From contig CANRCZ010000008.1 in assembly GCA_947629265.1 (NCBI GenBank), forward strand, positions 14,751 through 46,750: a stretch of 32,000 nt of DNA, in the 5' to 3' direction. Both the position numbers and the translations under genes were made by a program. This document shows, one piece after another, positions 4,212-22,063 of the stretch. This DNA comes from an uncultured Bacilli bacterium. GTDB lineage: Bacteria; Bacillota_I; Bacilli_A; RF39; UBA660. The notes beneath the pieces were generated by a model that was not told where the DNA came from, searched no databases, and saw nothing but the letters and a program-made list of their open reading frames with translations. Each line of letters begins with the position of its first letter. The stretch's first letter is position 1.

Positions 4212-5048
4212 TTATGCTAATATCCAAGCTTCTTGACCAAATTCATCTATTCCTTTACCTGTAGTAAGGACACTAGATTTTAGAACAATTATAGGTCGAA
4301 TACCGAATGCTAGTTCACCATGAGGAAGAATAACAGTATTCCCTGTAGGATTCAGATATAAAAGACGATTATCAGAAGCATATTCATTAGATTCATTGGC
4401 TAACCAATAAAGTGTATTAGTTTGTCGTAAATCGTTTGTTCCAGCAAGTTTTTCCACATCTTCTTTAGTTATTGAGCGTGCTGAAATTGCATACGAATTC
4501 TTATATTGATTAGCTCTTTCATTTAACAATCTTATACTCTCACTTGGATATGAATCTTCTTTTATACTATGATAATAACATTCAGGCTGACCAGCATGAA
4601 TTATAGTTACTGTTTTAGTACTTGTATTTGTTTCAAGCACACGCCAACCTTGATACTTTGATAAAGCATCTTTATAACATGCTACACTTGTATTTTTACT
4701 TGTATTAGCTTTATATCCACCAAACTGTCCTTGTTCTGTTGGTTTTCCTAATGTTTTATCCCATGTTCCAGCATTATAATTTACAAAATCTCCCTCTTTT
4801 ACCACATCAGCTAAATAGGCATATTTATAAACTTTCGCTTTTTCTTCCAAATCATCAACTTTAACAGCCTTACCTATTAAGTCATCTAACGCTTGTTTTA
4901 CATTCATCGTTTGACCATTTCTAGTATAACTTACACTTTCGCTTGTAAAACTACCTACTGCATAGCTTACCCCTCCCATTAAGATAACCCCTATAAATAT
5001 GCCTATTATAAGTTTACTTTGTCTTTTTAAATAACTCATTTTTTTCAT
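4212..5048 (-). CDS. Membrane-anchored extracytoplasmic protein, paralog A (DUF6273-like signature; function unknown)
   Basis: 278 aa with SD GAGGGG upstream. The N-terminus has a basic stretch plus a hydrophobic helix, LIIGIFIGVILMGGVSYAV. Blocks shared with 5636..6493: SESVSYTR.GQT..VKQALD.LIGKAVKVDDLEEK, FGGY, GWRVL, HAGQPECYYH, YWLA, FG[IF]RP..VLK, LTTGKGIDEF.QEAW. Confidence 0.8.
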   Translation of the reverse strand: MKKMSYLKRQSKLIIGIFIGVILMGGVSYAVGSFTSESVSYTRNGQTMNVKQALDDLIGKAVKVDDLEEKAKVYKYAYLADVVKEGDFVNYNAGTWDKTLGKPTEQGQFGGYKANTSKNTSVACYKDALSKYQGWRVLETNTSTKTVTIIHAGQPECYYHSIKEDSYPSESIRLLNERANQYKNSYAISARSITKEDVEKLAGTNDLRQTNTLYWLANESNEYASDNRLLYLNPTGNTVILPHGELAFGIRPIIVLKSSVLTTGKGIDEFGQEAWILA

Positions 5049-5068
5049 TTTTTACCCCTCTTTCTAAC

Positions 5069-5111
5069 AGGACATTTTATTTATATTATAATTATATAAA
5101 TTTTATGTCCT
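5069..5111. promoter_or_regulatory. Inverted repeat (candidate operator) in the divergent intergenic region of module A
   Basis: aggacat (5069-5075) and atgtcct (5105-5111) flank an AT-rich core. On the minus strand this core contains TATAAT-like hexamers for the 4212..5048 gene. Confidence 0.4.
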
Positions 5112-5162
5112 CTTGTCAACTGTTTATTTAAAAACTGTGAGAATATATTTTTGAGGTAAAAC

Positions 5163-5606
5163 ATGAAAAATAGAATAAAAGATTTAAGAGAAGATAGAGA
5201 TTTATTACAAAAGGATATTGCCCTTTTTCTAAATATAACAATTAGACAATACCGTAGAATTGAAAAAGGTGAAAATGAGCTATCTTATAATAGTTTAATA
5301 AAATTATCAGAGTTCTATAATACGTCAGTTGATTATATTTTAGGAATTATCAATAATATTGAACCCTATCCTAAAAATAAAAGTTATAATAAAATAAAAG
5401 ATCTTCGTATAGAAAATAACCTATATCAAAAAGATATTGCTAAAATATTAAATATAACTCAACCTGATTATTCCGTTATCGAAAGCAATAAAAATGAATT
5501 ATCATACGATGGATTAATCAAACTTTCTAATTTTTATAACACATCTATTGACTATTTACTTGGTTTAACCGATATTAAACAGCCATACAATAAAAAGGTA
5601 GAATAA
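5163..5606 (+). CDS. XRE-family transcriptional regulator with two tandem HTH domains, paralog A
   Basis: 147 aa with SD GAGG. Two copies of the Cro/C1 pattern (DLRE...L.QKDIA..LN.T...Y..IE....ELSY..LIKLS.FYNTS.DY.LG). Confidence 0.85.
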   Translation: MKNRIKDLREDRDLLQKDIALFLNITIRQYRRIEKGENELSYNSLIKLSEFYNTSVDYILGIINNIEPYPKNKSYNKIKDLRIENNLYQKDIAKILNITQPDYSVIESNKNELSYDGLIKLSNFYNTSIDYLLGLTDIKQPYNKKVE

Positions 5607-5629
5607 AAGATAAGCGTCGCTTATCTTTT
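5606..5629. terminator. Bidirectional hairpin terminator between convergent genes
   Basis: Near-perfect palindrome aaagataagcg-t-cgcttatcttt with T-rich tracts on both strands. It starts at the TAA of 5163..5606. Confidence 0.55.
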
Positions 5630-5635
5630 AATTTA

Positions 5636-6493
5636 TTATTGTGGAGCTACTAAAGTCCATGCTTCTTGTTTAAATTCATCTATTCCTTTACCTGTTGTTA
5701 GTATTCCCTCTTTTAAGACTACAACTGGACGAAAACCGTATGAAAGATCGCTACTGGAACCATTGATATTACCTGCATTTCCCACGAGATACAAACGAGC
5801 ACTATCTCCTGCATCGGCTAGCCAATAATATGCTCCTGTATTTCTTAAATCATTACTAGTAACCTTTATATCGTTAGTAATTTCTAAAGCTTCATTATAA
5901 TCAAGGGCATGAGCTGATTCGGCGAATTCATTCTTATATTCTTTTGTTGCTTGGTCATTTAATAATTTCACACTTGCCGCACTATATCCATTAGTACTAT
6001 TATATCCGTGATAATAACATTCAGGTTGGCCTGCATGGACTAGGTAAACTTGCTTATTTTCAACTTTTAATACACGCCAACCTTTCAAACTTGTTGAGCC
6101 CCAACTAGACACAAGACCACAAATTACACTTTCTCCTTTACTGTGACCCTCAGTATATCCACCAAACTTTCCTTGTTCATTTGGAATAGCTACAGTCGAT
6201 TTCCAATCACCGGCATCGTAGGCCACATAATCACCGACTTTTGCTACGCTAGCTAAATAATCAACGCCCATATTTTTATAATAAGCCACTTTTTCTTCTA
6301 AATCATCAACTTTAACAGCCTTACCTATTAACTCATCTAACGCTTGTTTAACCGTCTTAGTTTGACCATCTCTAGTATAACTTACACTCTCACTAGATAA
6401 ATTATCTACAGCATAGCTGACCCCTCCCATTAAGATAACACCTATAAATATACCTATTATCAACCTACTACTACTTTTAATTAATCTTAACAT
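5636..6493 (-). CDS. Membrane-anchored extracytoplasmic protein, paralog B (DUF6273-like signature; function unknown)
   Basis: 285 aa with SD GAGGTGA. Same N-terminal anchor and conserved blocks as 4212..5048; the central part is diverged. Confidence 0.8.
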   Translation of the reverse strand: MLRLIKSSSRLIIGIFIGVILMGGVSYAVDNLSSESVSYTRDGQTKTVKQALDELIGKAVKVDDLEEKVAYYKNMGVDYLASVAKVGDYVAYDAGDWKSTVAIPNEQGKFGGYTEGHSKGESVICGLVSSWGSTSLKGWRVLKVENKQVYLVHAGQPECYYHGYNSTNGYSAASVKLLNDQATKEYKNEFAESAHALDYNEALEITNDIKVTSNDLRNTGAYYWLADAGDSARLYLVGNAGNINGSSSDLSYGFRPVVVLKEGILTTGKGIDEFKQEAWTLVAPQ

Positions 6494-6504
6494 TTTATCA
6501 CCTC

Positions 6505-6549
6505 ATACACGTATTATTTATATCTACATTATATAAATTTTCCGTGTAT
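6505..6549. promoter_or_regulatory. Inverted repeat (candidate operator) in the divergent intergenic region of module B
   Basis: atacacg (6505-6511) and cgtgtat (6543-6549). Position and span (about 45 bp) match the module A repeat, but the half-site sequence differs. The shared core is attatataaatttt. Confidence 0.4.
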
Positions 6550-6587
6550 TAGTCAATACTTTTTTATTAATATGAGAAAATTAACCT

Positions 6588-7031
6588 ATGAGAAATAAAA
6601 TAAGAGATTTAAGAGAAGATAATAACTTATACCAAAAAGATATCGCTAAAATATTAAATGTTACTCAACAACAATATTCAAGAATTGAAAAAAACGAAAA
6701 TCAACTTTCTTATGATAAATTGATTATTCTAGCGGATTTCTATAATATATCAACTGATTACATTTTAGGACTTACAAGCAATAAAAAAATACATACTAAA
6801 AATAAAAGTTATAACAAAATAAAAGATCTTCGTATAGAAAATAACCTATATCAAAAAGACGTCGCTAAAGTATTAAATATAACTCAACCTGATTATTCTG
6901 TTATCGAAAGCAATAAAAATGAACTATCATACGATGGATTAATCAAACTTTCCAAATTCTATAACACGTCGATCGATTACATACTTGGTTTAACTGATGA
7001 TAAAAAACCATACACAAAAGAAGCTACTTAA
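6588..7031 (+). CDS. XRE-family transcriptional regulator with two tandem HTH domains, paralog B
   Basis: 147 aa. The second HTH domain is nearly identical to that of 5163..5606, while the first is clearly diverged. Confidence 0.85.
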
Positions 7032-7041: not shown

Positions 7042-9159
7042 TCTTGAAAGATTAAGACGTCCTTTCTTATCGTAACCCAATGACTTAACGATAATCTCAT
7101 CGCCAACTTTAACAATATCACTTGGTTTTTCAACACGTTTACTATCTAATTGTGAAACATGAACTAAACCCTCACAACCTGGCCATAATTCAACAAAGCA
7201 TCCAAAATCTTCAACTTTAACGACTTTACCAGTATATATCTTGCCATCTTCAACCTCTCTAACGACACTTTTAATCATCTCAGCGGTCTTATCGATTATC
7301 TCTTGACTAGTATGATATATAATAACACGTCCATCATCCTCTAAATCGACCTTAACAGCATTGATATCATTGACGGTCTTAACATTGCTAGCATCTAAGA
7401 TAATCTTAGTGATCATGTCACCACCCTTACCGATGACATCTTTAATCTTATCAGGATTAATCATAAAGGTCATCATCTTAGGAGCGTACTTGCTAACCTC
7501 TTTACGAGGTTCAGCGATCTGTTTAGTCATAACGTCTAATATCTCAAAACGAGCTTCCTTAGCTTGCATTAAAGCTTCCTTTAATATCTGCTTAGTAATA
7601 CCCTTTATTTTAATATCCATCTGTAGTGAACAAATACCATCTTTAGTACCAGCGACTTTAAAGTCCATATCACCTAGATGATCTTCCATACCTTGAATAT
7701 CCGTTAAAATAGTATAATCCTTACCATCCTTAGAGGTAATAAGTCCCATTGCAATACCAGCGACTGGAGCCTTAATTGGTACACCAGCAGCCATTAAAGC
7801 CATACAACCAGAACAGATCGTAGCTTGACTTGAAGAACCATTAGACTCTAGTATTTCAGATACAACCCTAATCGTATATGGGAATTCTTCCTCGGTTGGA
7901 ATAACTTGTGATAAAGCTCGCTCTCCTAAAGCTCCATGACCGATTTCTCTTCTACCAGGTGCTCCATAACGACCAGTTTCTCCAACAGAAAATTGTGGGA
8001 AATTGTAGTGTAACATAAACCTTTTAGCATCCTCGATACCAAGACCATCTAAAATTTGATGTTCCCCTAAAGCACCTAAAGTTACAACACCTAAAGACTG
8101 TGTTTCTCCTCTTGTAAATAAAGCTGAACCATGAGTTCTAGGTAACAAGTCAATATCGGTTGAAAGAGGTCTAATCTCGTTCATCTTTCTACCATCAGCT
8201 CGCGTCTTTTCATTAACGACAATCTGTCTAAAAATCTCATATTCGATATCTTCTAAGACCAATTTTACTTTTGTTAATAACTCATTTAGCTCTTGTTCAC
8301 TTAAAGCACTATTTTCTTCCTCGTATTTTGATACGACATCTTCTTTTACTTTATCGATAGCGGCATACTTTTCTAATTTTTCTTTAATACGCATTGCACT
8401 ATCTAACTTACTAGCTGATAAAGCTCTAACCTCTTCTTTTAAATTATCAGAGATCTCTAATTTTTCATATTCCATCTTCTCTTCACCGATTTCGTCGATG
8501 ATCTTCTCTTGGAATACACATAATTCTTTAATAGCTTCATGACCAAACATTAAAGCTTCTAACATGTCTTCTTCCTTAACCTCTTTAGCGCCAGCTTCAA
8601 CCATGTTAATAGCTTCTTTAGTACCAGCGACAGTTAGATCGATATCCGATTTTTCCATCTGTTCAACAGTTGGATTTATAATAAATTCACCATCGATTCT
8701 TCCCACTTTAACACCAGCGATTGGACCATCAAATGGTATTTTAGATATACAAGTTGCAAGTGATGAACCTAACATTGCTGTAAGTTCTGGTGAATTATCT
8801 TGATCAACCGATAAAACCGTATTGACAACTTGAACCTCGTTTCTAAAATCACCAGGGAATAATGGTCGCATTGGTCGATCGATCATTCTAGCTGCTAAAG
8901 TAGCATTATCAGTAGGTCGACCCTCTCTTTTAATAAAACCTCCAGGTATTTTACCAACTGAATATAACTTTTCTTGATATAGTACCATAAGTGGAAAAAA
9001 ATCAGATAAAATATTAGCATTCTTGCTAACGACAACCGTCGATAAAATAACCGTATCACCATATCTAACTAGGACCGCTCCATGAGCTTGTTTCGCTAAT
9101 TCACCATGTTCAACAACTAATTTTCTTCCTCTAAAATCTAATTCAAATACTTTTTTCAT
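7024..9159 (-). CDS. pnp: Polynucleotide phosphorylase (polyribonucleotide nucleotidyltransferase)
   Basis: 711 aa with two RNase PH domains plus KH and S1 ([28 protein letters not shown]). Classic position downstream of rpsO. SD AGAGG. Confidence 0.97.
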
Positions 9160-9967: not shown

Positions 9968-10685
9968 TTTTATCACCATATATCTTGACTAAAGTATCCA
10001 ATCCTTTAAAATCAATCTTTCCTTTCTCTTTTAATAATTTAACACTATCGACACTAACAACATTATACTTTAACATCGAATTTAAAGCCTCATAATTAAA
10101 CGTATCAACATTGATATTATTATCTTTGTACTCTTCCTTTAAATCGTTAATATCGTCCGTTACTTTCTTAAAATCTTTCGTAAAACTTGATAAAATAAAC
10201 GTACTATCTAAAAGTTTATCACTCAATTTAGAACTTTTAATCTGCTTAAAATTAAAAGTTGGTAACGATAAAATATAAACGACGATAAACGACCAAACAA
10301 CCCCCTCGATAATACCGACTACTAAACCTAATATCTTAGATGGTATCCCTAAAACGATCGTTACTTTAAGTAATTTTTCAAATATCCTTGTAGCGAAACT
10401 TACGACCTTTAAAATAACCGTTAATAAAGATAATAAGATAAAAAACGAAAGAACCTCATACACTAGGATATTGATAACCGTTACCCCTTTAAAAAAGCCA
10501 CCAAAAGGAATAAACGGTAAATGATTATAAAGAAAATTAGAAAGTGGACTCTTTAAATAAAACGCTAAAACTAAAACGACAAAGAAACCTAAAAATGATA
10601 CTAATTCCCTCGTAAAACCTCGTTTAAAACCTAAAAGGCTACATCCAATAACAATAATAATTACCGCTAAATCAACTACGTTCAC
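9960..10685 (-). CDS. cvpA: CvpA-family (colicin V production) integral membrane protein
   Basis: 241 aa with an apparent GTG start. The N-terminus DLAVIIIVIGCSLLGFKRGFTRELVSFLGFFVVL is typical of CvpA. Four to five TM helices are followed by a soluble tail. Confidence 0.7.
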   Translation of the reverse strand: MNVVDLAVIIIVIGCSLLGFKRGFTRELVSFLGFFVVLVLAFYLKSPLSNFLYNHLPFIPFGGFFKGVTVINILVYEVLSFFILLSLLTVILKVVSFATRIFEKLLKVTIVLGIPSKILGLVVGIIEGVVWSFIVVYILSLPTFNFKQIKSSKLSDKLLDSTFILSSFTKDFKKVTDDINDLKEEYKDNNINVDTFNYEALNSMLKYNVVSVDSVKLLKEKGKIDFKGLDTLVKIYGDKND

Positions 10686-11784: not shown

Positions 11785-12543
11785 TTATTTAAAGTCTTTT
11801 ACTAAATGCTTGTTACTTTTATTATGATTTTCTTGTAATTCTTTTTTTTGATTACTAGATAATGGTACGTTACCCTCAAAGTAATCACAGAATAAATCAG
11901 GAATTTGAATAGATTCGGTTGGATACATTTCAGCCTCATCTAAATCTTCTTTATATATATAGTTTTTTGACATTTTAAATGTTAAATAAGTTTCTAGATT
12001 ATTAGCTTCGTTTACTTTTGTCAATAAGGTATTAATATTATATACTGTTGGTGTTACAAGACGATTGATATCGGTTGATAGAATGTTACCCTTTTCATCT
12101 AAATTGATATCTAAGTTAGTGATTAAATCTTGGATTGTCTCAGTATCATTGTGACCGATCTTTTCGATGATATTTAATAATAAAAGGGCTTTTCTTCTAA
12201 CGATATCGGTATATGTTTTAAAATATTCTAAAGTATATGGTTGATAATTATATCTAAGGATTGCTAAGCTATCGACAAATGTTTGAGCTGAGTTTGAAAA
12301 TTCAAGATTTTTAAGGTAGTTTGGATCTTCTATTCTCATCTTTAGTCGTGGATTTTCTACTGCTAATTTATTATCTAGATATTCTTTTATTTGTTCGTTA
12401 GTAACAACTACTTTAGCATTATTAACTCCGTTTTTTATTTCGTCTAATTTACAATCACATAGTTCTTCTAAAATTGTAATAATAGATTGGTAATCACAGT
12501 ATTTGTTATCTGTACCATCAGAATAAGACTCTAAATTATTCAT
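11785..12543 (-). CDS. Hypothetical protein (252 aa, predicted helical, no recognisable motif)
   Basis: I moved the start to the ATG at 12543 (MNNLESYSDG...). GGAGG lies 7 nt upstream, and the track start at 12579 falls inside the promoter -10. Confidence 0.7.
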   Translation of the reverse strand: MNNLESYSDGTDNKYCDYQSIITILEELCDCKLDEIKNGVNNAKVVVTNEQIKEYLDNKLAVENPRLKMRIEDPNYLKNLEFSNSAQTFVDSLAILRYNYQPYTLEYFKTYTDIVRRKALLLLNIIEKIGHNDTETIQDLITNLDINLDEKGNILSTDINRLVTPTVYNINTLLTKVNEANNLETYLTFKMSKNYIYKEDLDEAEMYPTESIQIPDLFCDYFEGNVPLSSNQKKELQENHNKSNKHLVKDFK

Positions 12544-12567
12544 ACAAAACCTCCTTCTTTGCGACAT

Positions 12568-12596
12568 ATTATACAACAATTTTAACGTTTATACAA
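12568..12596 (-). promoter_or_regulatory. sigma-A type promoter for 11785..12543
   Basis: The minus strand reads TTGTAT (12591-12596), a 17-nt spacer, then TATAAT (12568-12573). Confidence 0.5.
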
Positions 12597-12914
12597 GCTA
12601 TTTTTTTAATTTATGTGTTAGATATGAGGTAGCTTCTTTATTCTTTGATTAAATCTTATCTTATAACGTGTTTAGTAGTGTTTTAATTTGTGATAAATTT
12701 AATATAAAAACACTTGATACTTTGCAAGTGTTTAGAATAATAATACTCTTAATTATTGTGATTATAAGCGTATATTTAATAAAAATACCATGTGTATGGA
12801 ATAAGTGTTGATATAATGATTATGTGTGCACTTGCTCATAATTTCTATTTATTCAATAATAAAAAGAGAATTACCTCTTTTTATTATATTTTTACCTTTT
12901 TATAGTATTAATTT

Positions 12915-13025
12915 AAAAGAAAAATCACCTAACTCAGCAATGATTTAGGTGATGCACATTATTATATGGCAACACTCAACGTGCTAAATTGAATATTCCC
13001 TCTTATCTATTCAAGTTTCCTTGAC
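12915..13025 (-). ncRNA. Predicted antisense sRNA, orphan copy (no cognate peptide ORF upstream)
   Basis: Runs from the promoter at 13032..13060 to hairpin atcacctaa (12924-12932) / ttaggtgat (12945-12953) plus a T-run on the minus strand. Confidence 0.4.
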
Positions 13026-13031
13026 ATATTC

Positions 13032-13060
13032 ATAATACCATAAAAATAAGCTTTTATCAA
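13032..13060 (-). promoter_or_regulatory. Antisense sRNA promoter, unit 1
   Basis: The minus strand reads TTGATA (13055-13060), a 17-nt spacer, then TATTAT (13032-13037) preceded by TGg. Confidence 0.55.
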
Positions 13061-13163
13061 GGCATTTTGGCTACTAATTCAATTTTATTTTTTGTATAGC
13101 CTACTATTTTTTTAATTGCTATATAAGTTGTTTTAAATTTGTGATAAATTTATTACAAAACTA

Positions 13164-13193
13164 TTGTGTTACAAACATTTTTTTTGGTACAAT
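13164..13193 (+). promoter_or_regulatory. Promoter of small-peptide mRNA, unit 2
   Basis: TTGTGT (13164-13169), an 18-nt spacer, then TACAAT (13188-13193) preceded by TGg. Confidence 0.55.
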
Positions 13194-13257
13194 ATTTGTA
13201 GGAACATTTAATAGTTGGGTGATTGCCTCTATATTTATAAATTGGAGGTGGTGCTTT

Positions 13258-13341
13258 ATGAGTAAAAAGGATTTTCTAATCTCTGTATTATTAATTATAA
13301 TACTTTTACTTATAACACTACTATTTGTAGTGTTGAACTAA
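13258..13341 (+). CDS. 27-aa hydrophobic peptide, candidate type I toxin (MSKKDFLISVLLIIILLLITLLFVVLN)
   Basis: GGAGGTGGTG lies 4 nt before the ATG. The peptide has a charged N-terminus and a single TM-length hydrophobic stretch. A paralog sits at 13680..13763 with synonymous and conservative differences. Confidence 0.6.
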   Translation: MSKKDFLISVLLIIILLLITLLFVVLN

Positions 13342-13448
13342 AAAAATCACCTAACTCAGCAATGATTTAGGTGATGCCAAATTCATTAGGCAACACTCAA
13401 CGTGCGAAATTGAATGTTCCTTTTTTATTTTATTCAAGTTTCCTTGAC
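13339..13448 (-). ncRNA. Predicted antisense sRNA, unit 2 (candidate antitoxin)
   Basis: Promoter at 13455..13483. The hairpin 13346-13354 / 13367-13375 is followed on the minus strand by 7 T that overlap the peptide stop codon. The RNA is fully complementary to the peptide mRNA 3' UTR. Confidence 0.5.
13392..13426 (+). terminator. Rho-independent terminator of peptide mRNA, unit 2
   Basis: Stem aacactcaa (13392-13400) / ttgaatgtt (13410-13418) with one mismatch, then cc + TTTTTT. Confidence 0.5.
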
Positions 13449-13454
13449 ACATTC

Positions 13455-13483
13455 ATAATAACATAAAAACAATATTATATCAA
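13455..13483 (-). promoter_or_regulatory. Antisense sRNA promoter, unit 2
   Basis: The minus strand reads TTGATA (13478-13483), a 17-nt spacer, then TATTAT (13455-13460) preceded by TGt. Confidence 0.55.
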
Positions 13484-13585
13484 GGTATTTTGGTCACTAA
13501 TTGAATTTTATTTTTTGTATCACCCGCTGTTTTTGATTGCTGTATAAGTTGTTTTAAAATTGTGATAAATTTATTACAAAAACTA

Positions 13586-13614
13586 TTGTGTTACAAACAC
13601 TTTTTTGATACAAT
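13586..13614 (+). promoter_or_regulatory. Promoter of small-peptide mRNA, unit 3
   Basis: TTGTGT (13586-13591), a 17-nt spacer, then TACAAT (13609-13614) preceded by TGa. Confidence 0.55.
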
Positions 13615-13679
13615 GTCTGTAGGAACATTTAATAAGTTGGGTGCTACCTCTTATCTTTATAGATTGGAGGTGATGCTTG

Positions 13680-13763
13680 ATGAGTAAAAAAGATTTTTTA
13701 ATCTTTGCTTTATTCATTATAATCCTTTCATTAATAGCATTACTTTTTGTAATTCTAAAATAA
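13680..13763 (+). CDS. 27-aa hydrophobic peptide, candidate type I toxin (MSKKDFLIFALFIIILSLIALLFVILK)
   Basis: GGAGGTGATG lies 4 nt before the ATG. Length and architecture match 13258..13341. Confidence 0.6.
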   Translation: MSKKDFLIFALFIIILSLIALLFVILK

Positions 13764-13870
13764 AAGTGCACCTAACTCAAACAGTTTGAGTTAGATGCCA
13801 AACAAACATTAGGTAACACTCAACACTGCATATTGAATGTTCCTTTTTATTTTATGCAAGTTCCCTTGAC
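13758..13870 (-). ncRNA. Predicted antisense sRNA, unit 3 (candidate antitoxin)
   Basis: Promoter at 13877..13905. The hairpin is ctaactcaa (13772-13780) / ttgagttag (13786-13794). The T-run begins a few nt after the stem, so termination looks weaker than in unit 2. Confidence 0.45.
13815..13848 (+). terminator. Rho-independent terminator of peptide mRNA, unit 3
   Basis: Stem aacactcaa (13815-13823) / ttgaatgtt (13833-13841), then cc + TTTTT. Confidence 0.5.
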
Positions 13871-13876
13871 ATATTT

Positions 13877-13905
13877 ATAGTACCATAAAAATAATCTTTT
13901 ATCAA
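13877..13905 (-). promoter_or_regulatory. Antisense sRNA promoter, unit 3
   Basis: The minus strand reads TTGATA (13900-13905), a 17-nt spacer, then TACTAT (13877-13882) preceded by TGg. Confidence 0.5.
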
Positions 13906-13942
13906 GGTATCTATATTAAATTTATAAAATTGATAAATCTAA

Positions 13943-15841
13943 TTATCTTTTTTTAATCTTAACTTTCTGATTATTTCTAAGTGAAGATAAGATCTCTATT
14001 TCCTTTTGTTTAACCTCACTAACGGTTAAATTGAAATAATCAGCGAGAGCTTCATAACTATAATTTTCTTGATATCTAAGCATAATAAATGATAATTCCA
14101 TAGGTGGTAAAGTCGATAATAATTGCATCATATTTTCACTAAATACAGTATTTTCTATCTTTTCATATGTATTATCAGGACTTTCAATATAGTCTAGTCT
14201 TGTTTCATTATAGTTTTTATCACTATTATCATACTTAGCTGCATCAATTGATAGATTATTAGACTGTTTTTTATATTGTTTTAAATAGGTTCTAAAGCAT
14301 CCTTTTACCGTTAAATCCATATATTTAATTATCTGTCCATATACGTTTAAATTAATTCTATCGATAACAGCAATTAAATAGAGTTTAATTTCACTTTCAA
14401 AATCTTCAAAATTATCTTTCTTTAAATCGATATTATAATCGCGACATAAAGAATGAATAGTATGATAAAGGTACATTCTTTGTTTCATTACTATCTCATT
14501 TCTCGTATCGTATAATTTGCTTTTATATATACCGATTAAATCGTATAGTTCGATATTTTCGATATCGCAATTTGATTTTAAATTCTTAACTAACAAAAAT
14601 AAGTTAGATAATTTTTTATCGGTAATTAGCTTATAATCGTTACTATCTTTAGCATCTGAAAAATACCAAATTAAGTTGATAGCTTGAGAATATGAAAAAT
14701 CCATACTAATTAGATAATTTACGTTACAAAAATCGATTTTTAAAAAGTCACAAAGTTCTTTTAATTGTTTTAAATCTTGGATTTCACCTATTTCTAAATC
14801 TTTAAATAGTTTATTTATTTTATTAATTTCAAGTCTATCTTCATATTTTTTAACTGCTAATTCTACTATTTTAGTATCATCTATATCTTGATTTGACTGT
14901 AAGGTTTTAATTCTCCTCAAAATATTTGAATAAGAATAACCCTCTTTATTACAGAAACTTGCTAAAGATTGATTTTCAAAATAGTATTTGGTTGTAACGG
15001 GTGGATTTTCTAGATAGTCGTTTATTATCTGCTTTATAGCATAATCGGTATCTTCACAGTCTCTATATTCACTTAAATATTTATTGATTATAGCTTTATA
15101 GCTGATGCCATTATCTATACAGTATTTTCTTAAGGTCATACCGTCATACATATATTTTATAGAAATTTTTTTATAGGCTTGGACACATTCATTTACAATT
15201 TCTTGGAGTGGTTTATCACTATTTATTTTTCTTTTTAGGATAGCTCCCCTAATTGAATTATAATTTATATCGTTATTTTTACAGTAGTCTATTAAGGGAA
15301 TACCGTTATAATAATATATAATTCCATTTTTATTAATTAAATCTATTCCCTCAATAATAAGGTCATTAATATCTTTATCACAACCGGATATTAATTTTCT
15401 ATTTACGAATGATACGATACTCGTATAAGGAATATTATTTTCTTTACAGTATTCGGTTAATAGAATGCCATTATAAAGATATTTAGGTTCAAATGGTTGA
15501 TATTGCATCATGATGGCTTCTATAAATTCATCATCATTCAAATTGGAAAATTTTTCTTCATTTTTATGATACTGTATATACGAAAGAATATTTTGATAGC
15601 TTACGTTATTTTCTTCACAATATTGTTTTAGAGGAATACCTACGTAATAGTATCTATATATACCTTTATGGAGTTTATCCATATATTTTTGGATTATTTC
15701 TTCATCCGTCTGATCGGGATTTTTCAATTTTTGGCGATATATGTATCGTCTTAATGTATCATATTTTAATTCTGGATTGTTTTTACAAAATTCGTATAAG
15801 GTAAGTCCTTTATAGCTATATTTTTTTGAATTACTTTTCAT
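13943..15841 (-). CDS. Sigma-70-like protein with an N-terminal array of six HTH-like repeats
   Basis: 632 aa with SD AGGGGGGTGA. There are six repeats of about 50-65 aa with the pattern Y.Y.G[ILM][PT]L..[YF]C..N.[IV].Y..I (e.g. YKGLTLYEFCKNNPELKYDTLRRYI, YNGIPLIDYCKNNDINYNSIRGAI). The C-terminus LPPMELSFIMLRYQENYSYEALADYFNLTVSEVKQKEIEILSSLRN matches sigma-70 region 4. Confidence 0.6.
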   Translation of the reverse strand: MKSNSKKYSYKGLTLYEFCKNNPELKYDTLRRYIYRQKLKNPDQTDEEIIQKYMDKLHKGIYRYYYVGIPLKQYCEENNVSYQNILSYIQYHKNEEKFSNLNDDEFIEAIMMQYQPFEPKYLYNGILLTEYCKENNIPYTSIVSFVNRKLISGCDKDINDLIIEGIDLINKNGIIYYYNGIPLIDYCKNNDINYNSIRGAILKRKINSDKPLQEIVNECVQAYKKISIKYMYDGMTLRKYCIDNGISYKAIINKYLSEYRDCEDTDYAIKQIINDYLENPPVTTKYYFENQSLASFCNKEGYSYSNILRRIKTLQSNQDIDDTKIVELAVKKYEDRLEINKINKLFKDLEIGEIQDLKQLKELCDFLKIDFCNVNYLISMDFSYSQAINLIWYFSDAKDSNDYKLITDKKLSNLFLLVKNLKSNCDIENIELYDLIGIYKSKLYDTRNEIVMKQRMYLYHTIHSLCRDYNIDLKKDNFEDFESEIKLYLIAVIDRINLNVYGQIIKYMDLTVKGCFRTYLKQYKKQSNNLSIDAAKYDNSDKNYNETRLDYIESPDNTYEKIENTVFSENMMQLLSTLPPMELSFIMLRYQENYSYEALADYFNLTVSEVKQKEIEILSSLRNNQKVKIKKR

Positions 15842-16013: not shown

Positions 16014-16087
16014 TGGTGCCACAAGTAGGAATCGGACCTACATTAAAGCCTTACCATGGCCTCGTAATACCACTATACTATTGTGGC
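16014..16087 (-). tRNA. tRNA-Thr(GGU)-like, divergent, CCA encoded
   Basis: The minus strand reads GCCACAA TA GTAT AGTGGTA TTAC G AGGCC ATGGTAA GGCTT TAAT GTAGG TCCGATT CCTAC TTGTGGC ACCA. The cloverleaf folds, but the T-loop is TCCGATT rather than TTCRANN and position 32 is A. Confidence 0.6.
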
Positions 16088-16154: not shown

Positions 16155-16182
16155 AACGAAAAAGCTAGTTCATAAACTAACT
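16155..16182 (-). terminator. Terminator of the GH25 gene (hairpin includes its stop codon)
   Basis: The minus strand reads agttagtt-tatg-aactagct (8 bp, one G.U) followed by TTTTCGTT. Confidence 0.45.
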
Positions 16183-17187
16183 TTCCTTTATTTGAATAGC
16201 ATCTATCTCTTGATTTAATATACCAGCATATCCATTAGTAGCATCATCAGTTTTATAGCCACTTACCCATGGAAGCCATCTTTTGCGCTTCCTTAAATGA
16301 ACCCGATATTTCAGCTTCTTACTAGTTGATTTAATCATAAAACCATCGATCGGTTTATTATAAATACCCGCATAATCACTACGATTTTTAACCTCTGGTA
16401 ACCATTTACCACCTTTATAATGAACTCTATAAAATAAATCACCACTGTTGCTACTAGCATAAATACAACAAATATCGTGATTAAATATACCCGCATAATC
16501 ACTATCGTTAACCACATTAGGTAACCATTTATTTTTTATATCATCCCATACTTGATAAGTAATCATATAATCATCGGTTCGATCACTATCGATTAGCTTA
16601 TTAGCGATATCACCATCAAATCTTTTACCGTTGATTTTAGCATTATTAGTGTTTTGCCAGATACTATAATCTTTTTTATAAGTACATTTATCACCCCACT
16701 GAGCTACCCACTTATCAAAACGATCTAACCTATCAGAATTTAACTGATTATTTAACCAACTTAAACTAGCATATATACCAGTATGATAACCTTGACTTTC
16801 TAACATATCACAAAAAGTATAACAGATATCAACTAAAACACTATCACTAGGCATGCCATTTTTAGCTTTATACCCATCACCATCTTCCATATCAAACCAT
16901 ACACCATATTTAAAATTTTTACCTACTTGTTTTAATAATCTTAACGCATGACGAGCTTCACTTAAAGCATCATTCGTATTTAAAGCATAGCTATAAAGGT
17001 AGATACCATAAGGAATACCTAATTTTTCACATTTATCGACGTTGTTTTTATACTGCTTATCATCTTGTGATACCTCATCATTACCATAACCACATCTGAT
17101 AATAACAAACTCGTATCCACTTGCTAAAACGTCATCAAAATTAACGACACCATTATTCGATGATACATCGATACCCTTTTTATTCAT
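16177..17187 (-). CDS. GH25 muramidase (lysozyme) with three C-terminal ChW-like repeats
   Basis: 336 aa. The N-terminus KGIDVSSNNGVVNFDDVLASGYEFVIIRCGYG ... GIPYGIYLYSYA is typical of GH25. The C-terminal repeats are WLPNVVNDSDYAGIFNHDI, YRVHYKGGKWLPEVKNRSDYAGIYNKPIDGFMIK and YRVHLRKRKRWLPWVSG..NGYAGILNQEIDAIQIK. No signal peptide. Confidence 0.8.
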   Translation of the reverse strand: MNKKGIDVSSNNGVVNFDDVLASGYEFVIIRCGYGNDEVSQDDKQYKNNVDKCEKLGIPYGIYLYSYALNTNDALSEARHALRLLKQVGKNFKYGVWFDMEDGDGYKAKNGMPSDSVLVDICYTFCDMLESQGYHTGIYASLSWLNNQLNSDRLDRFDKWVAQWGDKCTYKKDYSIWQNTNNAKINGKRFDGDIANKLIDSDRTDDYMITYQVWDDIKNKWLPNVVNDSDYAGIFNHDICCIYASSNSGDLFYRVHYKGGKWLPEVKNRSDYAGIYNKPIDGFMIKSTSKKLKYRVHLRKRKRWLPWVSGYKTDDATNGYAGILNQEIDAIQIKES

Positions 17188-20836: not shown

Positions 20837-21445
20837 TTATTTAACCTTATAGAATTTGTTTAGGAATTTAGCGAATTCAAAAACGATAATATTGTTTTTA
20901 TTGATAGCGAAACTTTTACCTATGGCTTTACCACCGATAGTAAGGCTAGCGACTAAGGCTGTAATAATCAAACTTATAAAGAAAATATTGATATTTAATA
21001 TACTAGCGATATTGCTAGCGACGATCGTACTAGCGGTACCGGATATAATACCACATATATCACCGATAACGTCACAACAGAACGATGATACTTTATCAGC
21101 GTTTTTGATTAGTTTAACTGATAGTTTGGCGCCATATACTTTTCTAGATGCCATCGAATTAAAAGGTATTAAGTCACAACTGGTCATAGCGACACCGATG
21201 ATATCGAACATGATACCGATTAAAATAAAAATGATAACGATGATAATTCCTATGATGGTATTCACGTTTGGTAAGATAGTTTCTGATAGACTAGAAAATA
21301 CTAGTGATATGATAAAGGTTAAAAGAACGATCTTTAAAAACCATGGTATTTCAACTTTTTTTCTTAGTTTTTTGTCTCTATTTTTGGTTAAGGTAATCAA
21401 ATTTTTAAGTTCATCTTTTACTTCTTGTTTTTCTTCTTTTCTCAT
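20837..21445 (-). CDS. oapA: OLE-associated protein A-like small membrane protein
   Basis: I moved the start to the ATG at 21445 (MRKEEK...; SD AGGTGGTG). About 202 aa with four predicted TM helices and the motif CCDVIGDICG (DxxxD). It lies immediately downstream of, and co-oriented with, a roughly 545-nt structured non-coding region. Confidence 0.6.
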   Translation of the reverse strand: MRKEEKQEVKDELKNLITLTKNRDKKLRKKVEIPWFLKIVLLTFIISLVFSSLSETILPNVNTIIGIIIVIIFILIGIMFDIIGVAMTSCDLIPFNSMASRKVYGAKLSVKLIKNADKVSSFCCDVIGDICGIISGTASTIVASNIASILNINIFFISLIITALVASLTIGGKAIGKSFAINKNNIIVFEFAKFLNKFYKVK

Positions 21446-21483
21446 TGTCACCACCTGGATTTAGAACTTATATGTGTTTATAC

Positions 21484-21509
21484 AAAAAAAGAAATTGGCT
21501 ACCAATTTA
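21484..21509 (-). terminator. Hairpin terminator/attenuator at the 3' end of the large ncRNA, upstream of oapA
   Basis: The minus strand reads aaattgg-tag-ccaattt followed by CTTTTTTT (stem at 21492-21498 / 21502-21508). Confidence 0.55.
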
Positions 21510-22028
21510 GTTAACTTTACGCCTTAGGTCAAGTAGAATTTCTCTAGCTTTTACATCACGTTACCATGATTGCGGTTCCCCTTTAAAAAAGCTAATACGA
21601 TGTATCTATAATTTGGATATATCAGTATCACTTGATCGCCACTTAGTACGTACTGCAATCCTAAAAAGGTTTCACTCTAGGAGATTTCCCCACCATTATA
21701 TCTATTATTAGTTCTTTTTTGCAGATAGCGTTTCAAATTGCAATAGCTGTAAACTTTAAGGCCTTAAAGTTTATAACCTGATCAATTATCCCCACTATCC
21801 ACGCAAGACAAGCTATCTACTTAAAAGTAGCAATCTAAAAAAATTTAGGTTATAAATACTGGAACAATGTTCGTATGCCGTTACGGTTGCCCAGCATTCT
21901 ACCTCTTAATATACACCCCAAACTGGGCGTAAGAAGCATATATCAAGAGTTGTATAGGTATGCTTTTAACGGATTTTTAGCCCCGTCTTCCTAATAGATA
22001 TCAATGACTAGAATAATGTGCCAATTCT
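21484..22028 (-). ncRNA. ole: Large structured ncRNA, probable OLE (ornate, large, extremophilic) RNA
   Basis: About 545 nt with no ORF and visibly higher GC than its surroundings. A near-consensus promoter lies upstream, a terminator lies at the 3' end and the oapA-like gene follows directly. Many local helices are present, e.g. aagcata..tatgctt, aactttaa-ggcc-ttaaagtt, ctac-ttttaa-gtag. Not verified against a covariance model. Confidence 0.6.
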
Positions 22029-22034
22029 TGATTA

Positions 22035-22063
22035 ATTATACCAAATTTTTTTGATTTGGTCAA
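22035..22063 (-). promoter_or_regulatory. Near-consensus promoter of the large ncRNA
   Basis: The minus strand reads TTGACC (22058-22063), a 17-nt spacer, then TATAAT (22035-22040) preceded by TGg. Confidence 0.6.

Follow-up and report, generated by a model that had tools for sequence, protein, structure and literature searches.

A tandem array from an uncultured Bacilli bacterium as a probable new family of type I toxin-antitoxin modules with a 3′-overlapping antisense RNA and a 5′-3′ mRNA clamp

Introduction

In the genome of an uncultured Bacilli bacterium, a unit of about 422 bp is repeated in tandem, and two of its three copies carry a 27-codon open reading frame (ORF) that faces a minus-strand promoter. 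Do these copies constitute type I toxin-antitoxin (TA) modules, as an earlier note on the DNA had proposed, and how would a toxin be kept silent in them? [quoted passage not shown] Type I toxins are also known to undergo tandem duplication (PMC2887945), and locking of toxin mRNAs by pairing between their 5′ and 3′ ends is known from hok and aapA1 (PMC5416894). Here, we describe the array in its window, i.e. the whole stretch of 32,000 nucleotides that was analysed, together with related modules. With a probability of roughly 75%, the array would represent a new family of type I TA modules in the Gram-positive style that combine a 3′-overlapping antisense RNA with a 5′-3′ mRNA clamp.

Results

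A tandem array with a period of 422 was detected by TRF at 12909-13910 (2.4 copies, 82% matches). Alignment of the three units places its start at about 12634 rather than 12915, and thus unit 1 is a full-length unit. The earlier note had been right about the number of units and their period of about 422 bp but not about the start, and all sequence elements that it listed were located in the window. The array comprises three complete 422-bp units, with the toxin half decayed in unit 1. All transcript ends were predicted from motifs of promoters and terminators, which are common in DNA of 26% GC. Promoter-like hexamers are not enriched in the AT-rich region (17 versus 13.8 ± 4.0 in shuffled sequences). 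The evidence for the promoters is therefore their conserved position in units and homologues and not their number, whereas enrichment was seen for terminator-like sites (2 versus 0.2). An inverted-repeat scan also revealed a palindrome upstream of each present or former toxin promoter, the core of which is invariant in all three units of the alignment:

12687-12708, no strand: palindrome of 20 bp, TTTGTGATAAATTTAATATAAA, unit 1 copy upstream of the former toxin promoter
13138-13159, no strand: palindrome TTTGTGATAAATTTATTACAAA, immediately 5′ of the −35 box of toxin A
13560-13580, no strand: further copy of the palindrome, 5′ of the toxin B promoter

A search for relatives, which the earlier note had recommended, recovered related modules at nine distinct sites (L001 to L008 and L010; L009 is a repeat of L001 and was left out of the count) from uncultured gut Bacilli, represented by species-level MAGs and metagenomes. 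The carriers include a 1.5-Mb circular genome, and OZ006970.1, RGIG1752 and HGM10802 are examples of sequences with such modules. Every related module lies in a different genomic context, no synteny is shared between the window and the related loci, and L004 and L008 contain multiple divergent copies per genome. Two other types of basic-then-hydrophobic peptide, encoded by L008b/c and L004b, are found on the same RNA scaffold; the three types can be labelled MSKKDFLI, MPKRIF and MNKREKSFF. Phage and plasmid collections gave no match to one unit (blastn) or to the peptide (tblastn). In viral contigs, none of 195 matches to the peptide pattern was confirmed, and 12 matches to a DNA pattern of the scaffold were all attributable to chance, with no HMM match.

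The putative toxin genes are as follows:

13164-13193, plus strand: toxin A promoter, TTGTGT (13164-13169)-18-TGgTACAAT with extended −10 (13188-13193); an equivalent promoter aligns in homologues
13258-13341, plus strand: toxin A ORF, 27 aa, MSKKDFLISVLLIIILLLITLLFVVLN; dN/dS about 0.19 across homologues
13586-13614, plus strand: toxin B promoter, TTGTGT (13586-13591)-17-TGaTACAAT, −10 at 13609-13614, read from the sequence
13680-13763, plus strand: toxin B ORF, 27 aa, MSKKDFLIFALFIIILSLIALLFVILK; from the ORF list, with selection across homologues

The leader of 58 nt carries GGAGG at 13244-13248, and in the window and the homologues the ORFs encode 26-30 aa with GGAGG 9 nt upstream. A basic N-terminus (MSKKD) is followed by a single hydrophobic stretch predicted to span the membrane (mean Kyte-Doolittle hydropathy of residues 6-26, 2.6-3.5). 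In modules with this type of peptide, all N-termini read MSKKDFLI although their codons have undergone synonymous changes. For instance, the Ser codon of L007 has switched from AGT to TCT. With a mean pN of 0.18, a mean pS of 0.58 and a median dN/dS of 0.19, substitutions across homologues indicate that the peptide ORF is under purifying selection. An ORF of less than 60 aa with a Shine-Dalgarno (SD) sequence, a hydrophobic membrane-spanning peptide and coding selection agree with a type I toxin gene. The lack of a charged or bulky C-terminal tail, which many type I toxins have (PMC2887945, PMC8309996), counts against this assignment. As had been surmised, the peptide lies outside any named family: Pfam and NCBIfam scans of both window peptides at E ≤ 10 returned nothing meaningful, Rfam searches of 12500-14000 at the gathering threshold and at E ≤ 10 yielded noise only, and a literature search for 'MSKKDFLI' found no match.

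A short amphipathic-to-hydrophobic peptide could also be exported or serve as a signal (bacteriocin-like, PSM-like or a pheromone), its production being controlled by the antisense RNA, and the L008 copies do reside among genes for secreted proteins. We consider this highly improbable, since the sequence amounts to one uninterrupted membrane-spanning segment and no leader or cleavage motif, exporter, immunity gene or modification gene was seen in any of the contexts.

The transcripts that would carry the ORFs are predicted to start at AGGAAC and to be highly structured:

13200-13432, plus strand: predicted toxin mRNA A, about 233 nt; 5′ end (13200-13222) pairs with 13394-13421, and an anti-SD:SD hairpin covers GGAGG at 13244-13248
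13621-13853, plus strand: predicted toxin mRNA B, about 233 nt, with the architecture of mRNA A
13346-13375, no strand: 3′-UTR hairpin of mRNA A, which on the opposite strand is the terminator hairpin of antisense RNA 2; compensatory changes at 5 of 11 pairs
13391-13432, plus strand: terminator of mRNA A, imperfect hairpin (13391-13420) and T-run; its 3′ arm can instead pair with the mRNA 5′ end

The minimum free energies of mRNA A (−73.3 kcal/mol, z = −8.1) and mRNA B (−71.6 kcal/mol, z = −8.0) are far below those of shuffled sequences, and across five different modules the z values are −8.1, −8.0, −8.9, −6.4 and −4.2. In the predicted clamp, the first 23 or so nucleotides are paired with the 3′ end, where the partner strand comprises the terminator's 3′ arm together with some of its 5′ arm. 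An upstream CCUC(U/C) is predicted to pair as an anti-SD sequence with the GGAGG ribosome-binding site. In the RNAalifold consensus, 94.7% of the cells are paired, compared with 37-49% when the partners are slid. Changes on both sides occur at 17 of 51 pairs, against 1-5 in slid and 5.3 ± 1.6 in shuffled alignments, and none of 500 shuffles reached 17, in a set of only 11 distinct sequences several of which are closely related (L002/L003, window A and B). Helices 1 and 2, which form the 5′-3′ pairing, comprise 21 pairs (96-98% paired, six compensatory), and the 5′-3′ helix alone has five compensated pairs; its U-G pairs would read as A-C mismatches on the opposite strand. The terminator hairpin that alternates with the clamp is also maintained across homologues. 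Although missed by a simple scan, it is 88% paired, compared with 28-46% when slid, and in mRNA B it occupies 13813-13843 and is followed by a T-run. Covariation thus lends strong support to the predicted mRNA fold. L001/L009, which is also exceptional in its antisense −10 box (see below), deviates by clamp mismatches and an Asp within the membrane segment that is predicted to make a dead toxin; together with unit 1, this decay lends circumstantial support to toxicity of the peptide. L007 has kept peptide and clamp without a clear terminator or antisense promoter, which counts against the TA interpretation.

In type I systems, the toxin mRNA is typically highly structured and its ribosome-binding site sequestered, and both features are predicted here. 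The probability that the SD sequence is unpaired does not exceed 0.06 in mRNA A and 0.16 in any full-length mRNA, and with a blocked or missing 3′ UTR it is at most 0.05 in most of them. Opening or closing of the SD sequence by the antisense RNA was rejected as a mechanism, the SD sequence being paired in all modelled states. That no modelled state opens it also weighs against the TA interpretation. In the models, the SD sequence remains sequestered with the 3′ UTR free or blocked, and the antisense RNA therefore most likely affects the stability of the mRNA instead of controlling ribosome access directly.

On the minus strand, units 2 and 3 contain the following elements:

13338-13448, minus strand: predicted antisense RNA 2, about 110 nt; complementary to the entire 3′ UTR of mRNA A and reaching its stop codon
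13455-13483, minus strand: antisense RNA 2 promoter, TTGATA-17-TATTAT with TG; promoter scan and homologue position
13759-13870, minus strand: predicted antisense RNA 3, about 112 nt; terminator hairpin 13798-13768 and T-run
13877-13905, minus strand: antisense RNA 3 promoter, TTGATA-17-TACTAT with TG; begins 37 nt past the stop (13943) of a convergent gene of 632 aa

Antisense RNA 2 (fold z = −4.0; 95 bits in nhmmer) would form a duplex of −162 kcal/mol with mRNA A, and antisense RNA 3 (z = −5.5) one of −161 kcal/mol with mRNA B. The predicted overlap between toxin mRNA and antisense RNA is about 95 nt (13338-13432), and the T-runs of the three antisense terminator hairpins (12924-12953, 13346-13375 and 13768-13798) reach the stop codons. 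Lack of conservation of the minus-strand promoters was one of the outcomes by which the earlier proposal was to fail; these promoters were found at the homologous position in most modules, which speaks in favour of the proposal. Each of the three window units as well as L004, L005, L006 and L008a/b/c has a sigma-A-type promoter whose −10 box ends 32-37 nt beyond the stem of the mRNA terminator. In L010 the distance is 15 nt, L002/L003 carry TTGAAT-17-TGgTAGTAT slightly under the scan threshold, and L001/L009 is the only module without a good −10 box in a scan of homologous positions. The two internal hairpins of the antisense RNA covary at 8 of 19 pairs, and its 5′ hairpin is kept with differing stems (CAAG/CUUG, UAAA/UUUA, UCAA/UUGA and GAAG/CUUC). 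At the sequence level, the module thus includes what defines a type I antitoxin, a gene for a cis-encoded complementary antisense RNA with its own promoter and terminator. Plus-strand matches TTGACA-18-AACAAT/AATAAT at 13444 and 13866 were rejected as promoters, because their TTGACA belongs to the antisense 5′ hairpin and is unconserved in L001, L002, L003 and L006.

Unit 1 differs from its neighbours in the following way:

12634-13084, plus strand: unit 1, toxin half decayed and antisense half intact in the three-unit alignment
12816-12905, plus strand: decayed toxin pseudo-ORF, MIMCALAHNFYLFNNKKRITSFYYIFTFL, without SD sequence and non-hydrophobic
12916-13025, minus strand: antisense RNA 1, candidate orphan antitoxin, about 110 nt; 5′ hairpin, middle hairpin and terminator hairpin (12924-12953) with T-run
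13032-13060, minus strand: antisense RNA 1 promoter, TTGATA-17-TATTAT with TG; promoter scan

Positions 92-227 of the mRNA model match 12878-13005 in nhmmer. Antisense RNA 1 (fold z = −3.9; 79 bits in nhmmer) is 86% identical to antisense RNA 2, and its predicted duplex is more stable with mRNA A (−119 kcal/mol) than with mRNA B (−75 kcal/mol). It could therefore still pair with toxin mRNA A and provide a second dose of antitoxin. The earlier description of two active modules and one orphan antitoxin fits these predictions, with the refinement that the orphan is the remainder of a decayed full unit.

Coding selection, mRNA structure and antisense RNA would fit equally well with a small membrane protein that is harmless to the cell, such as one modulating a transporter, a sensor or a division protein, and that is tuned by a cis-antisense RNA without any TA logic. 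A charged C-terminal tail, which is common among type I toxins, is missing from the peptide, and among the named type I 'toxins' there are some with only weak toxicity (PMC2887945). However, tandem duplication, divergent copies within one genome (L004, L008), placement in contexts unrelated to one another, translational silencing at two levels and a scaffold on which peptides can be exchanged are traits of type I toxins rather than of ordinary small proteins (PMC2887945, PMC5416894). The decay of unit 1 was asymmetric, with the toxin lost and the antisense half kept, which likewise argues against a benign protein. We therefore regard this alternative as unlikely.

With respect to its surroundings, the array lies in a segment (11.2-16.2 kb) with a GC content of 24-26%, compared with 28-34% in the flanks, that abuts a tRNA-Thr gene. 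The idea of a classic integrated island was dropped, no integrase being seen in the window segment. The suggestion that the modules stabilise the surrounding island does not generalise, because homologues adjoin the core genes rseP, smpB, femAB and pheST. In five unrelated contexts, a convergent gene ends with its stop codon 1-37 nt ahead of the antisense promoter, and no terminator separates the two. These neighbours are rseP, smpB, femAB, a WYL regulator gene and the sigma-like gene of the window. As a consequence, 3′ UTRs formed by read-through from the convergent gene would carry antitoxin sequence.

Such positions, often directly after the stop of a convergent gene where the unit would act as a terminator, might also be occupied by a terminator cassette, a small element of mobile or repeat type that spreads between convergent genes and whose ORF and promoters are incidental; a 14-nt direct repeat flanks L007. 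Against such a cassette, purifying selection acts on the ORF while synonymous sites turn over, SD sequence and start codon are conserved, and the 5′ UTR covaries with the 3′ end, a feature that a pure terminator cassette does not need. Neither terminal inverted repeats nor a transposase were seen. We hence give little credence to a mere cassette, mobility and TA function not being mutually exclusive.

Discussion

The best reading of these data is a module that most closely resembles bsrG/SR4 and txpA/RatA and, in addition, possesses a 5′-3′ mRNA clamp like those of hok and aapA1. Similar to bsrG/SR4, txpA/RatA, bsrE/SR5, yonT/SR6 and sprG/SprF, it is found in Firmicutes and codes for a small hydrophobic peptide. 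In the bsrG/txpA group, convergent RNAs overlap at their 3′ ends by about 75-120 nt, compared with about 95 nt here, the SD sequence of the toxin mRNA is partly sequestered, and by analogy, RNase III-dependent decay would be the expected mode of action of the antisense RNA (PMC4147584, PMC8309996). A convergent antisense RNA over the 3′ end of the toxin mRNA, as in TxpA/RatA and BsrG/SR4, is thus predicted here too. Homology to these systems was not detected, as the Rfam BsrG model scored 14.7 bits (E about 1), which is below its gathering threshold of 55, and no protein family matched. Moreover, the antisense RNA of the bsrG/txpA families also overlaps the ORF (PMC8594479), whereas here it covers the 3′ UTR and stop codon only. 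The peptides of 26-30 aa carry N-terminal charges, unlike those of the bsrG/txpA group with 38-59 aa and C-terminal charges, and no 5′-3′ clamp built from a terminator arm has been described for them.

An antisense RNA that converges on the toxin mRNA and does not overlap the ORF is shared with par (Fst, RNA I/RNA II) of Enterococcus faecalis pAD1 and with Fst/Ldr, as are a membrane peptide of about 30 aa with essential N-terminal K/D residues, a structured 5′ region that limits translation and tandem chromosomal copies (PMC2887945, PMC8309996). In contrast, the APxxxG motif, the conserved Trp and the charged C-terminal tail of Fst (PMC8309996, PMC2887945) are absent: Pfam gave no match at E ≤ 10, and no peptide contains a Trp, an AP dipeptide or a C-terminal tail. 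The two par RNAs share a bidirectional terminator, whereas here the hairpin of each RNA is nested in the other, and the 5′ direct repeats that provide complementarity at the translation start of par are absent. Consistent with this, an RNA II-type antitoxin was not recognised, there being no Rfam match and two separate hairpins.

The likeness to hok/Sok and aapA1/IsoA1 concerns the lock on the mRNA. In these systems, 5′-3′ pairing locks the full-length toxin mRNA with a sequestered SD sequence, and a stable toxin mRNA is opposed by a presumably labile antisense RNA (PMC5416894), a difference in stability that would apply to our module as well. The long-distance pairing itself is present here as judged from predicted folds and covariation. 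However, the antisense RNAs of hok/Sok and aapA1/IsoA1 target the 5′ UTR or translation initiation region and not the clamp-forming 3′ segment, and activation there needs 3′ trimming, whereas 3′ truncation did not open the SD sequence in our models. Both systems are Gram-negative, from a different phylum and without sequence similarity to the module. Its antisense RNA lies within the 3′ UTR, and neither HOK_GEF nor any other Pfam family matched the peptide.

These comparisons allow us to propose a mechanism. During transcription, the terminator hairpin would form first and later yield to the more stable 5′-3′ clamp. As the clamp would keep both ends of the RNA double-stranded, the message should be long-lived but poorly translated. 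From the convergent promoter just past the terminator, an antisense RNA of about 110 nt with three hairpins would be produced that is fully complementary to the 3′ UTR as far as the stop codon. Pairing probably starts at the complementary hairpin loops and would displace the mRNA 5′ end from the clamp. The resulting duplex of about 95 bp would be cut by RNase III, leading to destruction of the toxin mRNA. If the supply of antisense RNA fails, the stable mRNA would persist, and the peptide would insert into the membrane and harm the cell. More tentatively, the family may be one in which the 3′ arm of the terminator swaps partners after transcription, the antisense RNA competes with the mRNA 5′ end, and the module is wired into host transcription such that toxin release is coupled to shutdown of the neighbouring gene.

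In summary, the array would add an unannotated type I TA family from poorly studied uncultured gut Bacilli. Its modules are invisible in current annotation because gene callers miss genes of 27 codons. The underlying RNA model is unusually well supported by comparative data, namely the dual-use terminator arm, the 5′-3′ clamp and the anti-SD hairpin, and it joins the 3′-antisense layout of Gram-positive systems with an mRNA lock of the hok/AapA1 type. At least three unrelated peptides on one scaffold suggest that the regulatory RNA chassis, and not the toxin, is the conserved unit of this family.

Organisation of the array

Direct reading of 12500-14400 together with repeat tools confirmed a tandem array with a period of 422 bp, which TRF placed at 12909-13910 (2.4 copies, 82% matches). 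Units 2 and 3 each carry an ORF for a putative toxin, A and B respectively, with GGAGG 9 nt upstream and a promoter of the type TTGTGT-17/18-TGnTACAAT ahead of it.

Putative toxin ORFs of the array
13258-13341, plus strand: toxin A, 27 codons, MSKKDFLISVLLIIILLLITLLFVVLN
13680-13763, plus strand: toxin B, 27 codons, MSKKDFLIFALFIIILSLIALLFVILK

Minus-strand promoters (n = 3; TTGATA-17-TATTAT/TACTAT, all with TG) occupy the equivalent position in every unit, and downstream of each the minus strand has a strong hairpin whose T-run extends to the peptide stop codon. All these elements, which an earlier note had described, were recovered on re-reading. Its account of unit 1 stood in part: the antisense half is kept and an intact toxin ORF is missing, but alignment of 12634-13084 to the next two units and an HMM search revealed a full, decayed unit, so that the array begins at about 12634 and comprises three full-length units. 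In unit 1 the SD sequence is gone and only a non-hydrophobic pseudo-ORF is left of the toxin ORF; an upstream palindrome and the entire antisense half are retained. At 26% GC, this DNA shows no enrichment of promoter-like hexamers (17 against 13.8±4.0 expected), so motif counts prove nothing by themselves and the case is built on conservation.

The 20-bp palindrome TTTGTGATAAATTTATTACAAA lies directly upstream of each toxin -35 box, including that of the decayed unit (12687-12708, 13138-13159 and 13560-13580). It is absent from the homologous loci and could be an operator or UP-like element. Within unit 1, a minus-strand terminator-like hairpin at 12708-12733 (AAACACTTGCAAAGTATCAAGTGTTT plus a T-rich tail) lies upstream of a 264-aa gene and may insulate this gene from transcription leaving the array.

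Relatives of the module and coding potential

A degenerate back-translation search, confirmed with tblastn as the earlier note had proposed, recovered homologous loci: eight from the genome collection and two from metagenomes (L001-L010, L009 repeating L001). They originate from uncultured gut Bacilli, with human, goat and rabbit among the hosts; one of them lies on a circular chromosome of 1.52 Mb. Phage, plasmid and viral-contig collections yielded no copy. All peptides start with MSKKDFLI and comprise 26-30 aa; no protein family matched, in agreement with the earlier note, and the motif occurs in none of the papers searched.

Among 11 sequences, nonsynonymous differences averaged 0.18 and synonymous differences 0.58 (median dN/dS 0.19). 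A conserved Ser codon is TCT in L007 and AGT in all others, and residues 6-26 are uniformly very hydrophobic. Together, these sequence features identify the 27-codon ORF as a gene under purifying selection.

Homology spans the whole module beyond the ORF.

Conserved elements in the module alignment
5' end: AGGAACATTTAATA-GTTGGGTG
anti-SD: CCTC
SD: GGAGGTG
3'-UTR hairpin: GCACCTAACTCA...TTAGGTGC
terminator: GGTAACACTCAAC...TTGAATGTTCC plus T-run
small hairpin, then convergent promoter

Since the flanking genes differ between all loci, the module is an autonomous unit. Further modules encode unrelated peptides, two in L008 (MPKRIFCIKVLRYITIILLLLTLLVIEIKK; 8064-8340 and 10192-10470) and one in L004 (MNKREKSFFIIIIILLFIIISLIYR; 1511-1790). 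These peptides are basic, then hydrophobic like the MSKKDFLI type, and RNA layout and antisense promoter region are as in the MSKKDFLI modules.

Several loci have peculiarities of their own. In L008 (1-12081), at least five paralogous minus-strand genes of about 410-520 aa are interleaved with the modules at a spacing of about 2.1 kb; the two scanned had no Pfam match, and those paralogues that were read from their start have a signal-peptide-like N-terminus (MKNLKMFAI...). L007 (5941-6185), on a contig labelled Muribaculaceae, is a divergent member with conserved peptide and entirely different UTR sequences, in which neither a terminator nor an antisense promoter could be made out clearly. 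A 14-nt motif, ACCAAYAATTACCA, occurs upstream of the modules in L002 (436-449), L003 (5877-5890) and L007 (5889-5902) and is absent from the window. In L007 a direct repeat of it brackets the module (5889-5902 and 6198-6211), which may be an insertion or duplication footprint. The module and its smpB-RNase R surroundings are common to L002 and L003 (4575-8251); L003 contains about 1.7 kb extra between module and smpB (an HTH_38 protein and a 136-aa ORF) and a serine-recombinase-like fragment upstream.

Predicted structure of the putative toxin mRNA

Single-sequence folds of the mRNAs greatly exceeded shuffled sequences in stability (z = -8.1 and -8.0 for A and B in the window; -8.9 for L004b and -6.4 for L008b, two of the modules with other peptides; -4.2 for L007). 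RNAalifold on 11 modules yielded four informative consensus helices: one between the 5' end of the mRNA and its extreme 3' terminus, one between the 8 nt following that 5' segment and the terminator 5' arm, the anti-SD:SD helix and the 3'-UTR hairpin. In this consensus 94.7% of cells are paired, compared to 37-49% with partners slid, and 17 of 51 pairs show changes on both sides (1-5 when slid, 5.3±1.6 when shuffled, the observed value being reached by 0 of 500 shuffles). As several U-G pairs of the 5'-3' helix would be A-C mismatches on the opposite strand, the fold can be assigned to the plus-strand RNA. The strongest sign that this predicted 5'-3' clamp is under selection is its retention in L007 and L004b despite completely different sequences. 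Its 3' arm doubles as an arm of the terminator hairpin, which is also maintained (88% paired versus 28-46% slid). Presumably, the terminator hairpin forms during transcription and is then replaced by the longer clamp.

The predicted antisense RNA

One condition that the earlier note had set for its reading was conservation of the minus-strand promoters, and most homologous loci bear this out. The antisense -10 box ends 32-37 nt past the terminator stem in the three window units, L004, L005, L006 and L008a-c; in L010 the promoter lies 15 nt past the stem. L002 and L003 carry TTGAAT-17-TGgTAGTAT, slightly below the scan threshold, and in L001/L009 the -10 box is damaged (TAGACG). The predicted antisense RNA contains a 5' hairpin, always retained with a stem sequence that varies by locus, and two further hairpins covarying at 8 of 19 pairs; it folds with z-scores of -3.9 to -5.5 against shuffles. 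Its complementarity to the toxin 3' UTR covers about 95 nt and ends at the stop codon.

Predicted duplexes of cognate mRNA-antisense pairs reach about -161 kcal/mol compared to about -87 kcal/mol for A-B cross pairs, indicating partial insulation between the modules. The orphan antisense RNA of unit 1 is predicted to pair with mRNA A at -119 and with mRNA B at only -75 kcal/mol and thus would effectively provide toxin A with a second antitoxin.

A convergent gene ends shortly before the antisense promoter in five unrelated contexts: the promoter starts 1-37 nt after the stop codon of that gene, with no terminator in between.

Stop-to-antisense-promoter sites and convergent genes
Window 13877-13943: sigma-like 632-aa protein
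L001 5051-5125: RseP
L002 753-825: SmpB
L004 6185-6263: FemAB
L010 3161-3206: WYL-HTH regulator

Read-through transcripts of the convergent genes would hence include the antitoxin sequence and stop at the antitoxin terminator. More speculatively, the module may be coupled to host-gene transcription.

Genomic surroundings

The window derives from a low-GC Firmicute chromosome and carries rnhC, RNase J, ABC-F and pheST-like genes, an S15 leader, tRNA-Thr, tRNA-Ile and OLE RNA. The array is flanked by the 264-aa gene, without Pfam or PHROGs match, and the gene of the 632-aa protein (13943-15841, minus strand). The latter combines a C-terminal sigma-70 region 4 with six internal repeats of about 50 aa (Y.G..L..YC..N...Y..I) and gives weak matches to families of phage sigma factors and late-transcription coactivators; an identical protein was not found on record. 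From about 11.2 to 16.2 kb, adjoining tRNA-Thr (16014-16087), GC content is 24-26% versus 28-34% in the flanks, and no integrase was found in this segment. Stabilisation of an island by the array, as the earlier note had considered, was not confirmed: the segment is mildly atypical, yet homologues adjoin core genes.

Elsewhere in the window, a GH25 endolysin-like gene (16177-17187) sits between tRNA-Thr and tRNA-Ile. The full-length OLE (ornate large extremophilic) RNA (21479-22040, minus strand, 291 bits) is followed by a 205-aa gene (20837-21454, minus strand) that has a weak, sub-threshold CNNM Pfam match and could encode the OLE-associated protein. A two-gene cassette is duplicated at 4212-7031 (4212-5048(-)/5636-6493(-), 50% identity; 5163-5606(+)/6588-7031(+), 74% identity).

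Discussion

In our models the probability of the SD sequence being unpaired was in most cases at most 0.1, be it in the full-length, the 3'-UTR-blocked or the 3'-truncated mRNA. As the SD is paired in all modelled states, it is probably not the site through which the antisense RNA acts. We prefer a route like that of txpA/RatA, in which antisense pairing would remove the protective clamp and the long duplex would serve as RNase III substrate, leading to degradation of the toxin mRNA (PMC4147584). Clamp and anti-SD hairpin would hold the mRNA stable yet silent, for which hok and aapA1 are precedents (PMC5416894). Transcription, RNase III involvement, toxicity and folding order are our inferences. 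Circumstantial sequence evidence favours toxicity: unit 1 decayed asymmetrically, losing the toxin and keeping the antisense half, and the only module whose antisense promoter is damaged, L001/L009, likewise shows an Asp within its membrane segment as well as clamp mismatches. L001/L009 could, however, also receive antisense transcripts by rseP read-through.

The position of the antisense RNA on the 3' side is the Gram-positive type I layout (PMC8594479). By layout, bsrG/SR4 and txpA/RatA are closest, without sequence or model match (Rfam BsrG 14.7 bits versus a threshold of 55) and with the difference that the overlap ends at the stop codon. In contrast to par/Fst, the peptides lack the APxxxG motif, Trp and C-terminal tail, and the module has neither a shared terminator nor 5' direct repeats (PMC8309996, PMC2887945). 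The 5'-3' lock resembles hok and AapA1, whose antisense RNAs target the opposite mRNA end.

Coding conservation, structures and promoters, as established here, bear out the type I toxin-antitoxin-like reading of the earlier note, toxicity being presumed. The occurrence of unrelated peptides on one RNA layout suggests that the conserved unit is the RNA chassis. Systems of this kind are well known; with good comparative support from sequence, the array appears to represent a new, unannotated type I toxin-antitoxin-like family.
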